From a virus (lineage: Duplodnaviria > Caudoviricetes): 53,964 bases of DNA. The notes beneath the pieces are model-generated. The model did no database searches, was not told the origin of the DNA, and was given only the letters and a program-made list of their open reading frames with translations. The stretch is taken from positions 1 to 53,964 of the IMG/VR virus record IMGVR_UViG_3300048853_000042, one strand, 5' to 3'. Every line of letters starts with the position of its first letter. Positions within the stretch are counted from its first letter, which is position 1. The position numbers and the translations under genes were made by a program. Shown here in pieces: positions 44,235 through 47,554 of the stretch.

Positions 44235-44401
44235 CTTCCGCCCTCCGCCATACGGATGAATTCAAGGATCGCTGCCCGACGGGCGCGCCAATCGACTGAA
44301 CGGGAGACCACATGCCGCTGACTGATGAGAAGATCAGGTCCAAGCCGGGACTTGACGGTTTCGCCGCCGTTTTCGGTCTCCGCTTCACGGTCCTGCATCA
44401 T
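44231..44401 (-). CDS. Small hypothetical protein
   Basis: ATGA-coupled to cro and to the HNH gene. Confidence 0.55.
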   Translation of the reverse strand: MMQDREAETENGGETVKSRLGPDLLISQRHVVSRSVDWRARRAAILEFIRMAEGGR

Positions 44402-44634
44402 GCCGACGCCCTTTCCCGTGCAGCTCGCTGGGAGGCCAGCCACTCAAAGGTGACACCCTTAATCTTCCGTCTCTGGCTGGCAGACACGACGCTGATCCAG
44501 TACTTCGGGTTGATGCTCTCCCGCAGGCGCATCTGACGTGCCGCCTCGTATCCGCAGCCTACGTCGTCGGCGAATTCACCGATCGTCGGCCACTTGTTGA
44601 TCAGGTCTGAAATGGAAGTCGGTGCGTTGCTCAT
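44398..44634 (-). CDS. cro: Cro-like repressor (probably leaderless)
   Basis: HTH FADDVGCGYEAARQM..RESI; divergent from cI. Confidence 0.85.
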   Translation of the reverse strand: MSNAPTSISDLINKWPTIGEFADDVGCGYEAARQMRLRESINPKYWISVVSASQRRKIKGVTFEWLASQRAARERASA

Positions 44635-44642
44635 GGGCTCAA

Positions 44643-44715
44643 CGTACAAAACGTACGGTGAGAAAACAAGTCTAAATCGTACACATTGCACGAAGGAAAC
44701 CGGGCATAATGTACG
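44643..44715. promoter_or_regulatory. OR operators and divergent PR/PRM promoters
   Basis: Three CGTACA-N3-TGTACG-like sites at 44643, 44678 and 44701; TTGTTT-N17-TACGTT on -; CATAAT on +. Confidence 0.8.
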
Positions 44716-44716
44716 A

Positions 44717-45394
44717 ATGGGGACACCGAAGGACAGATTGAGGCAAGCGAGACAGGCCGCCGGCTTTGCAACGCCGACGGAGGCTGCCCGCGCGCATCCG
44801 CGAGAAATCAACGTCAACACATTGATCAGCAACGAAAACGGGAACCGCGACATCTCGCGCAAGGCGGCGGAGAAGTATGCTAAACTTTTTGGGGTGGAGG
44901 CAGGCTGGATACTCTACGGCGAAGGCGGGGTGGATGCCGTCGCGCCCAAGCAGCCGCATGAACCGGCTAATGCGATAGTAACCGGCGATATGATACAGAA
45001 GGGCCCGAAGATACCCCTTTATGGCGCTGCTGTCGGCGGCGATTATGGAGAATTCGAACTGAACGGTAATCGCCTCGACGACATTTTCGCGCCTCCCAGT
45101 CTTAGCGGAATACCGGAAGCCTTTGCCGTCCAGGTATCAGGGGATTCGATGTATCCTCGGTATGAGGACGGCGAAACGGTCTACGTCAATCCGCGGCGCC
45201 GGCCGGTGAAGGGCGACTATGTCGTTGCCGAAATCCAGACGGAGGAGCACGGACCAAAGCTTGCCTACATCAAGAAGCTCGTGCGCCATACGCAAAGCGA
45301 GTTGATCCTTGAACAATTTAATCCAGCCAAGCAGATCCGGTTCGATGGCCGGCAGGTCCATACCGTTCACTACGTGCTGAAAAGTGGCGAGTGA
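44717..45394 (+). CDS. cI: CI-like repressor (HTH plus S24 autopeptidase)
   Basis: RLRQARQAAG HTH; AVGG cleavage region; VSGDSMYP; IKKL. Confidence 0.93.
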   Translation: MGTPKDRLRQARQAAGFATPTEAARAHPREINVNTLISNENGNRDISRKAAEKYAKLFGVEAGWILYGEGGVDAVAPKQPHEPANAIVTGDMIQKGPKIPLYGAAVGGDYGEFELNGNRLDDIFAPPSLSGIPEAFAVQVSGDSMYPRYEDGETVYVNPRRRPVKGDYVVAEIQTEEHGPKLAYIKKLVRHTQSELILEQFNPAKQIRFDGRQVHTVHYVLKSGE

Positions 45395-45430
45395 GGCTGC
45401 GCTATCCTGCCAATCACACGAGCGTAACAT

Positions 45431-45446
45431 TTAATCCCTTGTTAAC
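45431..45446. promoter_or_regulatory. Consensus CtrA box
   Basis: TTAA-TCCCTTG-TTAAC about 20 bp upstream of the toxin ATG. Confidence 0.65.
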
Positions 45447-45464
45447 CCAAACTTGTTGACTTAT

Positions 45465-45950
45465 ATGGCAACACTTGATGAACTAGTCGATCTGGGAGTA
45501 TTGCGTCGACAACGGATCGACCTGGGGCGCAAGGACTTTCCTGACCGGAAGCTCTATGTGACACCAGAGTTCCGAGAGTGGCTAAACAAGGTGGTTATGC
45601 AGGCCGATCCCTTCTACAAAACGAATGCAAGACCGCGATACCAAGCGCATGACCTCATCAAGGCATTCATCACGGGAAGGCCGTTCCTAGAAAATAGATT
45701 GTTCAAGCGGATGAGCCCGAACAGTGATGATGTCTATGAACTCAGGACCCCGGACCTGCGCTTCTTTGGATGGTTCCCTCACAAAGATTGCTTTGTTGCA
45801 GTGGTCGGGGACACTTTCGAGAGGCTTAAAGAGGAACCGAGCCTTTATGAAAAGCACCGCATTCATTGTGTCGCGTTCCGCAGAGAGATTGACTTAGATG
45901 AGCCCAAATACGAGGCAGGAGCAGGAGAACATGGCGTCATCTCATGCTGA
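45465..45950 (+). CDS. RelE/HigB-like toxin candidate
   Basis: FKRM..DDVYELRTPDLRFFGWF; precedes an HTH gene. Confidence 0.65.
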   Translation: MATLDELVDLGVLRRQRIDLGRKDFPDRKLYVTPEFREWLNKVVMQADPFYKTNARPRYQAHDLIKAFITGRPFLENRLFKRMSPNSDDVYELRTPDLRFFGWFPHKDCFVAVVGDTFERLKEEPSLYEKHRIHCVAFRREIDLDEPKYEAGAGEHGVISC

Positions 45951-46413
45951 TGATTTTTTCTCACTCCCCGAACAAGAGGTCGAGGCCGCGGAATTCATTG
46001 CGGAAGTAGGCCGCGTTTACCAAGAGGCGTTTCTTCGTCGGAAGTCCGAATGCAAACTCTCTATGCAAGAGATGGCAACGAAGCTGGGCGTCGATAGATC
46101 TCGGATCCACCGCTGCCTGTCGGGGCACAGCAACCTAACTCTCGAAAGTATGGCTGAACTCGCTTGGGCGCTCAACGCCAAACCAAAATTCCACCTGGAG
46201 CTTGATCACTCTTACGAAAAGGCTCGGGCAAACTACTTTCTGCCGCGCTCCCCAGAGGCGTCTCCGCCTAATACCGCTGCGGGTGGTAACATTGTGCAGG
46301 TGAGGCCGGAATCAAACCAAGGGACGGCGACATTTTACACAGCGAATATCGAGGCCAAGGTCCGCTCTAATGCTTTGGAGCACGAGGCAGCACGCTTGGA
46401 ACAAATCAAATGA
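45931..46413 (+). CDS. XRE-HTH (HigA-like) antitoxin candidate with a long C-terminal extension
   Basis: SMQEMATKLGVDRSRIHRCLSGHSNLTLESMAELAWAL; overlaps the toxin gene. Confidence 0.8.
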   Translation: MASSHADDFFSLPEQEVEAAEFIAEVGRVYQEAFLRRKSECKLSMQEMATKLGVDRSRIHRCLSGHSNLTLESMAELAWALNAKPKFHLELDHSYEKARANYFLPRSPEASPPNTAAGGNIVQVRPESNQGTATFYTANIEAKVRSNALEHEAARLEQIK

Positions 46414-46841
46414 AGTTTCAAAACCTTACGCTCTGCGACCACATCCGCGTAGAGGACAATGGAAAGTTTCTGTTAATCGGCGTGTATACGAACACCATCT
46501 TGTTCCAACAACTTCCGGCCCAGTTTCACCTAAGCATCTGGATGCTGATCGAGCATGAGCAGACTGGACCGTCATCCTTTTCTTTGCGCGGACGAATGCC
46601 AGAGGCTGACGCTGATCTATTTGAAATTTCGGCCGATGCTCACATCGAGAAGACTGACGAATGGACCCCCTTTGGGGTGACCGCTCCCCTGCTAATTGGC
46701 CAACCCGGGACATTAGTTATAGAGGCGATGACGAACGGTGGCGACTGGTTTGAGCTGCGGAAGATTCACATTAAGAAAGGCGTGCCTTCCCGCTTAGTCC
46801 CGCAGGCCGGCACAACACCGAAAGGAACTGTCGCCAAGTAG
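46410..46841 (+). CDS. DUF6941-like beta-sandwich protein
   Basis: LCDHIRVEDNGKFLLIGVY; ATGA-coupled to the HTH gene. Confidence 0.7.
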   Translation: MKFQNLTLCDHIRVEDNGKFLLIGVYTNTILFQQLPAQFHLSIWMLIEHEQTGPSSFSLRGRMPEADADLFEISADAHIEKTDEWTPFGVTAPLLIGQPGTLVIEAMTNGGDWFELRKIHIKKGVPSRLVPQAGTTPKGTVAK

Positions 46842-46867
46842 CGACCTTAGTTATTCCTGAGAATTTG

Positions 46868-46892
46868 ACCCCGCCATCGAGCGGGGTTTTTT
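46868..46892 (+). terminator. Rho-independent terminator closing the immunity operon
   Basis: ACCCCGC-CATCGA-GCGGGGT followed by a T run. Confidence 0.85.
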
Positions 46893-46923
46893 GTTGCGGT
46901 GATTCTCACCATTGATTGCTAAT

Positions 46924-46975
46924 CGTACAAAACGTACATTTTGTGCTTGCGTTGATATCGTACATATTGTACGAT
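46924..46975 (+). promoter_or_regulatory. OL operators and PL promoter
   Basis: CGTACAAAACGTACA; palindrome ATCGTACATATTGTACGAT; TTGCGT-N17-TACGAT. Confidence 0.82.
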
Positions 46976-47006
46976 CTATTTCATCAACACACGGCCACGC
47001 CGGGAG

Positions 47007-47333
47007 ATGAAAGCGATGAGCATCCAAGCCGTAATCCAGAGCATCAAGTCCAACGCCGCCTGCCTGTCACACGCGATGCGTTGCGACCCGTCGGATGCAG
47101 ATGCACAAGCCGCGCTCAAGGATTTCCTGCAGCGCACCTATTCCGATCTGGCTTCGCTTGCGTGGCATCTTGGCGCCGACGGCGACGTCTTCCAGCGCGA
47201 GGCCGTACCGGCATCCGAACTCGTCGATGACGTCTATTTCGCGATCAACCGCGAGAAGGAATTCGAGGCGCCGGTACGCGGGCAGGTCTATTCGACGCTC
47301 AATCACCCCCAGCAGTTCGGGAGCGGGTTCTAA
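47007..47333 (+). CDS. Early hypothetical protein
   Basis: First gene after PL; GGGAG RBS (start 47007 or 47016). Confidence 0.75.
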   Translation: MKAMSIQAVIQSIKSNAACLSHAMRCDPSDADAQAALKDFLQRTYSDLASLAWHLGADGDVFQREAVPASELVDDVYFAINREKEFEAPVRGQVYSTLNHPQQFGSGF

Positions 47334-47554
47334 TGACCCGCGCCACCTGCCCCGCTTCCGAGTTCGGATGCACCTGCAACCGCTGCGCTGTCGATCGCGA
47401 CGACGATCTTGAAGCGCTCAAGCAGTTCAACCGCGCCACCTCCGCAACCGCCATGTGCCTCATCCTGATCGCCCTCGTCCTCGGCATTTTCGCCGTAGGC
47501 CTCTGGCGGACGGAACAGGTGCACAAAGCAATCGTCGCTGAAAGGAATGTCTGA
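47333..47554 (+). CDS. Small membrane protein with Cys-rich N-terminus
   Basis: Coupled ORF with one TM. Confidence 0.7.
   Translation: MTRATCPASEFGCTCNRCAVDRDDDLEALKQFNRATSATAMCLILIALVLGIFAVGLWRTEQVHKAIVAERNV

Follow-up and report, generated by a model that had tools for sequence, protein, structure and literature searches.

A putative tripartite toxin-antitoxin-like module with a DUF6941 protein in a temperate phage repressor operon

The window analyzed here is the whole of IMG/VR virus record IMGVR_UViG_3300048853_000042, an entry of 53,964 bp, and the subject of this report is a cassette of three co-oriented, overlapping genes (gene 1, 45465-45950; gene 2, 45931-46413; gene 3, 46410-46841) which lies between an S24 cI-like repressor gene and a terminator. 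We consider it moderately probable that these genes constitute a tripartite type II toxin-antitoxin (TA)-like module which a temperate phage carries as a moron within its repressor operon. The first product was predicted to adopt the fold of HigB toxins, the second contains a helix-turn-helix (HTH) domain followed by a low-complexity tail, and the third is a DUF6941 protein whose gene was found beside the antitoxin genes of different TA families. The arrangement resembles that of toxin-antitoxin-chaperone (TAC) systems, and the comparisons suggest that what is new here is a TAC-like tripartite system in which the third protein is another one and the toxin belongs to a new HigB-fold family. An earlier reading of the DNA, made without database searches (the sequence-only reading), had proposed a TAC-like system at this position. 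The tailed HigA-like gene 2, the non-SecB gene 3 and the association of the third gene with several toxin and antitoxin families agree with that proposal, while the possible gating of the system by the cell cycle which was part of it is not supported for the module.

Predicted products of the three genes

The gene 1 reading frame (45453/45465-45950) is called in the database as a product of 161 aa starting at the ATG at 45465. Its AlphaFold model (predicted local distance difference test score, pLDDT, 96.4; predicted template modelling score, pTM, 0.91) had a RelE-type alpha/beta fold, and when the model was compared with the PDB using Foldseek the top 13 rows were all toxins of the RelE/ParE superfamily (best E 4e-3, probability 0.94-1.00). 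The closest solved folds were HigB toxins, among them HigB1, the toxin of the Mycobacterium tuberculosis TAC system. Structural alignments with the classical toxins began at approximately model residue 25, leaving an N-terminal extension of about 25 residues. By features, PF05973 Gp49 was the nearest named cluster in the protein atlas (0.80, a lead below the 0.9 level), and a Gp49 cluster was matched by structure as well (template modelling score, TM, 0.61). Sequence models of the RelE/ParE families (PF05973 Gp49, PF05016 ParE, PF05015 HigB and others) gave no match to gene 1, and a comparison with PDB sequences and profiles returned nothing related, the best profile match (E 1.6) being to an unrelated protein. 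As modelled, gene 1 appears to combine a HigB-type toxin fold with the extra N-terminal residues and to lie outside any sequence-defined family. The sequence-only reading had described a RelE/HigB-like core in this protein; the motif, VYELRTPDLRFFGWF, is present and the model fold matches HigB.

At E<=0.001 the gene 1 family comprised 391 representative clusters, of which 193 remained at E<=1e-10. Among 15 close homologues DLRFFGW was invariant, and in an alignment of 114 members R99 was invariant and E92, F101, G102, W103 and R139 were nearly so; K122 also belongs to the conserved residues, together with R99, E92 and R139.

The longest gene 2 ORF (open reading frame) runs from 45898 to 46413 and encodes 171 aa. 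An alternative ATG at 45931 is likely to be the start, because it is preceded by AGGAG and is favored by comparison with 24 relatives; depending on the start, the overlap with gene 1 is 20 nt or 53 nt. The product matched HTH_3 (PF01381) with 27.5 bits, above the cut-off of 23, in keeping with an XRE-type HTH, and matched phrog_1381, annotated as plasmid antitoxin with HTH domain, at 5.7e-7, while the score with the HigA equivalog TIGR02607 (37.9 bits) was under the cut-off of 47.7. Approximately 65 low-complexity residues are found C-terminal to the HTH, and an XRE protein with a tail of this length is what had been read from the sequence before.

Gene 3 encodes 143 aa and matched DUF6941 (PF22091) with 33.5 bits, above the gathering threshold of 27; its neighbors in the protein atlas were DUF6941 clusters. 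The model (pLDDT 94.4) was an all-beta sandwich with no helix of four or more residues. SecB contains helices, and Pfam gave no SecB match for gene 3, the kind of third gene found in TAC systems. By Pfam assignment and predicted secondary structure gene 3 is not SecB-like, and the earlier description of a beta-rich, DUF6941-like, non-SecB protein could be confirmed. Fold searches returned generic beta-sandwich or Ig-like structures (Wzt CBD, UNC119, RhoGDI, GH2 domains, Asf1 and SoxZ) from which no function can be derived; these lists contained no SecB chain, which is not proof of its absence. The best viral structural match was an uncharacterized protein of Anoxybacillus phage A403 (TM 0.74). 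The most conserved stretch of gene 3 was the N-terminal FCDDIRxExxGKxxLIGVY, and R13, E15 and G24 were invariant in 29 sequences. The stop of gene 2 and the start of gene 3 overlap as ATGA in the window, and the same overlap was present in 8 related loci (by ORF coordinates) and in the Synechococcus phage MinM1. Prediction of a complex of genes 1-3 using alignments, with gene 3 as partner, gave scores of 0.34, 0.08 and 0.21 against a mark of 0.32, values which speak neither for nor against binding.

Conservation of the triad and linkage of DUF6941 to toxin-antitoxin families

The loci derived from gene 1 comprised 19 in species-representative genomes (Rhizobiales, Rhodobacterales and one Rhodospirillales) and 5 on viral contigs. 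With profiles at E<=1e-3, the full triad was found in the same order in 23 of these 24 loci; the remaining locus, L016, ends 300 nt past gene 2, and a divergent, open-ended gene 3-like ORF is present in that space. The antitoxin gene was directly downstream of the toxin gene and overlapped it in 24/24. A survey of co-occurrence had been proposed together with the sequence-only reading, and strong co-conservation of the three genes is what it gave. Antitoxins of the gene 1 class extended a median of 50 residues past the HTH, with 58% S/T/A/P/G/N/Q. Two of the loci are of unusual structure. At L020:4031-6590 the triad is decayed, with gene 1 in two frames and gene 3 split by an insertion containing a transposase-like ORF, and at L010:4877-6640 a 587-aa ORF joins the gene 3 homologue to an extended series of TPR repeats, in a record which has masked N stretches.

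A gene 3 homologue was present in 10 of 401 sampled alphaproteobacterial genomes, and in 9 of these 10 genes resembling gene 1 and gene 2 lay directly upstream of it; those nine loci include a second, more distant toxin subfamily of approximately 176-192 aa. The tenth locus (L035:1459-2625, minus strand) contains HicA (PF07927, 30.6 bits), a HicB protein (49.5 bits) with a low-complexity tail, and DUF6941 (66.2 bits), and therefore the same third gene is joined here to a TA family unrelated to RelE/HigB. The Pfam DUF6941 model was an insensitive probe for such a survey, as it recovered 2 of 5 gene 3 homologues when applied to genomes in which their presence was established. Its matches in the phylum-wide sample (3/401) were the HicAB locus, a locus outside a TA context (L039) and a match in L040 which was rejected as a false positive, lying within an unrelated long ORF.

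A pattern search based solely on gene 3 yielded 80 metagenome and 40 viral loci, from which 86 non-redundant loci were kept after loci with less than 700 nt of upstream sequence, loci with identical neighbors and one locus lacking a gene 3 profile match had been dropped. The gene immediately upstream (-1) encoded an HTH_3 protein in 67/86. The gene before that (-2) fitted the iterated gene 1 profile in 36/83 loci, Gp49 in 8/83 and ParE_toxin in 1/83 (E<=0.001), and another class at this position, with LWRLK...YRIIY motifs, gave weak ParE matches of 16.6-16.8 bits. The third component is thus shared by different TA families (the gene 1 family, Gp49, ParE-like and HicAB), as it is in TAC systems. 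An antitoxin extension beyond the canonical domain, also a property of TAC systems, was observed in the window, in the gene 1 class and in the ParE-like class, whose antitoxins carry an extra 80 residues or so N-terminal to the HTH. At two loci (L107:798-1891 and L109:943-1997) the DUF6941 gene is preceded by a tailed protein with zinc-ribbon and HTH, and this in turn by a protein of about 150 aa without a family. An MqsRA identity was considered for both and is not claimed, Pfam having given weak zinc-ribbon/HTH matches only and nothing for the toxins.

There were 62 loci with room upstream of the toxin gene, and after removal of 12 without a same-strand ORF before the toxin, 50 were scanned. 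The same-strand gene immediately before the toxin encoded a Peptidase_S24 repressor in 15/50 and a DDE_Tnp_IS1595 transposase in 4/50. At L025 an S24 repressor lies approximately 700 nt upstream, and at L022 the triad adjoins an integrase. The isolated Synechococcus phage MinM1 (ON981384.1; L161, 1150-3387) encodes an S24-like protein followed by a hypothetical protein, an HTH protein with an A/P/T-rich tail and a second hypothetical protein, and the last three matched the profiles of gene 1 (iterated, 8.7e-21), gene 2 (2e-16) and gene 3 (1.5e-32), respectively. The S24-adjacent loci and MinM1 show that placement behind cI is recurrent across phyla, which by analogy fits a function expressed in the lysogen, for example exclusion of other phages. 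No publication on MinM1 was found in the literature searched. Relatives of the module were mostly from Rhizobiales and Rhodobacterales. On plasmid or chromid records of Rhizobium, Niveispirillum and Bosea gene 1 had 7 matches, either listed as hypothetical or unannotated, and a tblastn search with gene 1 of 50,697 deposited phage records gave no match.

The immunity region and the DNA upstream of gene 1

A lambda-like immunity region spans 44.6-47.0 kb of the window and contains the following features.

44644-44714, no strand: OR-like left operator set, three GTACA-N3-TGTAC-type sites (44644, 44679 and 44702) between a leftward gene and the repressor
44717-45394, plus strand: cI-like repressor with HTH and Peptidase_S24 autocleavage domain; presumed start at ATG 44717, inside ORF 44594-45394
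45431-45446, plus strand: CtrA-type TTAA-N7-TTAAC box; CTTGTTAAC (45438-45446), its 3' part, is conserved as a -35-like element or an extra half-site
45455-45472, no strand: 18-bp palindrome GTTGAC-TTATAT-GGCAAC enclosing the gene 1 ATG; putative operator for gene 2
45465-45950, plus strand: gene 1, putative RelE/ParE-fold, HigB-like toxin of 161 aa, assigned by model fold, without a sequence family
45931-46413, plus strand: gene 2, putative XRE/HigA-like antitoxin and autorepressor with HTH; alternative start 45898
46410-46841, plus strand: gene 3, DUF6941 Ig-like beta-sandwich of 143 aa, assigned by Pfam and model
46867-46897, plus strand: intrinsic-terminator-like hairpin and T-run (hairpin and T-run at 46867-46888), closing the transcription unit of cI and the triad
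46925-46972, no strand: OL-like right operator set, a repeat of the left set (46925, 46934 and 46960), ahead of the rightward early genes

The repressor matched Peptidase_S24 (PF00717) with 45.5 bits and phrog_4 at 1.5e-28. The left and right operator sets are 2281 bp apart and each contains three GTACA-N3-TGTAC-like sites. When up to two mismatches were allowed this motif occurred 17 times in the window against 5.6 expected, a number reached by 0/100 shuffles, and 6 of the 17 matches fall inside the two short operator regions. The layout given by the sequence-only reading, in which three overlapping genes run from cI to a terminator with OR and OL operators around them, agrees with the ORFs, the hairpin and the operator repeats. 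Its placement of the triad in the slot held by rexAB in lambda was likewise correct, with cI upstream, the terminator downstream and the two operator sets on either side. Because the triad lies between cI and the terminator, inside the operator-bounded immunity region, the module is expected to be expressed in the lysogen. The G+C content of the cassette is 0.50-0.53 compared with approximately 0.60 in the flanks, and this difference fits a moron. On the other side of the left operator set the gene in the cro position (78 aa, 44398-44634, minus strand) diverges from the repressor; searched as a longer ORF it had no family match in Pfam.

Upstream regions were compared in an alignment of 20 and then among 46 unique related regions. 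The palindrome which encloses the toxin ATG is conserved as an 18-bp GTTGAC-N6-G(G/C)CAAC. GTTG-N10-CAAC was present in 36/46 unique regions, and visual inspection revealed variants of the type TTGAC-N6-GTCAA, in which both arms co-vary, in 7 of the remaining 10; in MinM1 the palindrome over the toxin ATG is ATTGAC-N6-GTCAAT. In 24 of the 36 a TTG, which in Rhizobiales belongs to CTTGTTAAC or CTTGTCAAC, was located exactly 16 nt upstream of the palindrome. The palindrome is probably the operator of the HTH antitoxin, and as such a candidate it offers a handle on the autoregulation of the module. A 12-base stretch, TTGACTTAGATG (45889-45900), located just ahead of the alternative gene 2 start at 45898, shares 11/12 bases with TTGACTTATATG, which precedes the gene 1 ATG. 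This repeat is without the right arm of the palindrome, and since other 12-mers repeat similarly it may be due to chance.

The upstream TTG and the AT-rich center of the palindrome resemble a -35/-10 pair, from which the RNA start would fall after the toxin ATG. This assignment conflicts with the N-terminus of gene 1, which is evidently coding, as leucine codons 4 and 7 vary between loci by synonymous changes and in Rhodobacterales TAA stands immediately before the toxin ATG. A sigma-70 scan of 44300-47400 found no promoter.

The sequence-only reading had also pointed to an exact TTAA-N7-TTAAC sequence upstream of gene 1. This sequence, TTAATCCCTTGTTAAC (45431-45446), is indeed there, 18 nt before the gene 1 ATG, and is the only TTAA-N7-TTAA(C) in the 53,964 bp. 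In 4/100 shuffles at least one match was obtained, but whole-window shuffles understate the local chance of such a box since the cassette is AT-richer than the window. That CtrA activates the module of this phage via the box, and so ties toxin expression to the host cell cycle, is in our view unlikely. CtrA boxes of activated promoters lie near -35, and a transcript starting about 9 nt past the ATG would have the box centered close to that position. Besides being exact and unique in the window, the box has a second full counterpart in L009 and near-matches in L021 (TTAA-N7-TTTAC) and L018 (ATAA-N7-TTAAT), and its left half, TTAATC, is conserved in the non-coding DNA of a small rhizobial subclade. 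However, the full TTAA-N7-TTAA was present in only 2/46 unique related upstream regions, those of the window and L009, and because of this we do not regard the box as a feature of the module. The right half coincides with CTTGTTAAC, which is present regardless of the left half and is conserved for other reasons. The cell-cycle gating which the sequence-only reading had raised as possible thus finds no support at the level of the module.

In a soil RNA library (X2) three low-depth contigs were located on the 3' end of cI and across the junctions of genes 1 and 2 and of genes 2 and 3. These contigs weakly hint at transcription of the triad; DNA carry-over is possible, and the gaps in cover, which include the flanking early genes, were not read as silence. 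DNA contigs of run X1, which may be the sample of origin, diverge from the window at several points (46979-47019), within or just past the right operators, and phages related to this one in the X1 sample may share the immunity cassette and differ rightward of it.

Comparison with known systems and rival explanations

In TAC systems, as described in the available portion of PMC5105189, a SecB-like chaperone binds the ChAD of the antitoxin, an extension which confers chaperone dependence, and chaperones of this kind serve HigBA, MqsRA and HicAB units. The chaperone of E. coli HigBAC senses a phage protein, leading to abortive infection (10.1101/2024.02.24.581848; PMC11980606; both in the portions available). 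The module described here shares with M. tuberculosis HigB1-HigA1-SecB(TA) and E. coli HigBAC the order of toxin, HTH antitoxin and third protein, a toxin with HigB1 among its nearest solved folds, an antitoxin with an unstructured extension, and a third gene common to several TA families, HigB-like, Gp49, ParE-like and HicAB in the present case and HigBA, MqsRA and HicAB in TAC systems (PMC5105189). It differs in the third protein, which is a DUF6941 Ig-like beta-sandwich and not SecB, and in the extension, which is S/T/A/P-rich and in one class N-terminal, whereas TAC antitoxins have a C-terminal aromatic ChAD. It differs also in that TAC systems can defend against phage (10.1101/2024.02.24.581848), while this module is known from sequence, models and gene linkage.

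Type II TA modules of the HigBA/Gp49-HTH kind likewise have the toxin first, a HigB/Gp49-like toxin fold, an XRE HTH antitoxin and a palindromic operator at the promoter or start. Unlike theirs, the toxin of this module has approximately 160 aa with an N-terminal extension and was missed by PF05973 and all other models, and a third gene is obligate. With lambda rexA-rexB the triad has in common its position downstream of cI in one transcription unit that ends at a terminator, the two operator regions and the expected expression in the lysogen; the biochemistry is different, and no Rex match was found in Pfam, PHROGs or PADLOC. In paaR-paaA-parE and omega-epsilon-zeta a dedicated transcriptional regulator serves as the third component. 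These systems also have three genes, with a RelE/ParE-fold toxin in paaR-paaA-parE, but in the present module it is the antitoxin which holds the HTH and the third protein is without DNA-binding features. A parallel with Caulobacter higBA-higX was considered and rejected, the third gene there being an unrelated membrane transcription factor independent of HigBA (PMC13384398, in the portion available).

Fold, domain content and gene linkage being what was observed, we infer the functional steps as follows. Gene 1 would be a HigB-shaped toxin of the RelE/ParE superfamily which, to judge from its fold, most likely cleaves mRNA on the ribosome. Gene 2 would be the antitoxin neutralizing gene 1 and would probably repress the module through the 18-bp palindrome. 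Gene 3, translationally coupled to gene 2, would most likely act on the disordered extension of the antitoxin, either keeping the antitoxin soluble and stable or making its stability depend on a signal, for instance a phage protein. The likely benefit would be protection of the abortive-infection type against other phages, addiction to the prophage, or both. We favor this TAC-like interpretation because the third gene is linked in a near-obligate manner to antitoxins of unrelated TA families, and because of the translational coupling, the unstructured extensions and the gene order.

Several results weigh against it. Gene 1 had no match in Pfam, NCBIfam, PHROGs or PADLOC, and comparison of its family with Gp49-like neighbors using hhalign was not significant (probability 3%, E 0.015), despite which ELR...R.FG motifs were aligned. 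The Foldseek E-values of gene 1 were modest (4e-3 and weaker), and as the profile comparison was non-significant the homology of gene 1 with HigB has to rest on fold. R99, E92, R139 and K122 are known from alignment as conserved positions and not as catalytic sites. The action of gene 3 on gene 2 is suggested by analogy with TAC systems and by gene neighborhood, and DUF6941 occurs outside a TA context as well, L039 having two membrane-protein-like ORFs upstream. The antitoxin tails are poorly conserved across relatives, and the promoter geometry described above does not fit. Neither gene 1 nor gene 3 is represented by a model in PADLOC, and therefore no prior link to defense exists for them.

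DUF6941 was not mentioned in the literature searched, and the TA/TAC literature searched describes no beta-sandwich third component; supplements, which could list the family, were outside the scope of that search. The RelE/ParE survey PMC11980606 contains no such tripartite unit in the portion of its text available, and its supplements could likewise list the family. A wider proposal, which we put forward tentatively and with more doubt than confidence, is that DUF6941 represents a second, non-SecB class of third partner of type II TA systems, acting in a holding or sensing role via the disordered extension of the antitoxin. In that proposal no fewer than four toxin families (the new HigB-fold family, Gp49, ParE-like and HicA) would have acquired it, and it would repeatedly have been placed behind cI in temperate phages from both Alphaproteobacteria and cyanobacteria. 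Expressed in the lysogen, the module would act there as an abortive-infection switch in which gene 3 senses the phage. Should gene 3 indeed govern the antitoxin, TA systems addicted to a chaperone or adaptor would have arisen more than once, with unrelated third proteins. This would provide a function for DUF6941 and for a toxin family, so far unnamed, that comprises several hundred clusters at 50% identity. It would also identify what commonly fills the rexAB slot of temperate phages in rhizobia, roseobacters and cyanobacteria. In prophages of these three groups the exclusion genes are, to our knowledge, little known. As MinM1 has the same arrangement and the cassette is small, the idea is directly testable.

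The module could instead be a plain addiction or stabilization unit which retains the prophage or island, with gene 3 fine-tuning the antitoxin and with no antiphage function, an explanation we hold to be rather unlikely. Type II TA modules classically stabilize mobile elements, and the occurrence of the triad on 7 megaplasmid or chromid records from Rhizobium, Niveispirillum and Bosea, the integrase next to it in L022 and the DDE_Tnp_IS1595 transposase before the toxin in 4/50 loci would all suit such a role. It does not account well for the recurrent spot behind cI-type repressors (15/50 and MinM1), where exclusion genes such as lambda rexAB are located, and TAC systems of the same logic do defend (10.1101/2024.02.24.581848, in the portion available).

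It is improbable that gene 3 is independent of the TA pair, for example as a separate exclusion or binding protein next to an ordinary HigBA-like pair formed by genes 1 and 2. Independent genes would not be expected to stay linked to different TA families, and the near-obligate linkage of gene 3 to HTH antitoxins extends across at least four toxin classes, with a start/stop overlap and with unusual antitoxin extensions co-occurring. Very improbable, finally, is a gene 1 which is an inactive, degenerate RelE-fold protein serving as co-regulator with the HTH protein. The lack of a toxin sequence family and of a significant Gp49 profile match, together with an N-terminal extension which is absent in classical toxins, would be understandable in such a protein; a large family under constraint, with its 391 representatives, the invariant R99 and the other nearly invariant positions, would not, and the order of gene 1 and its HTH partner and the overlap between them are as in HigBA modules.

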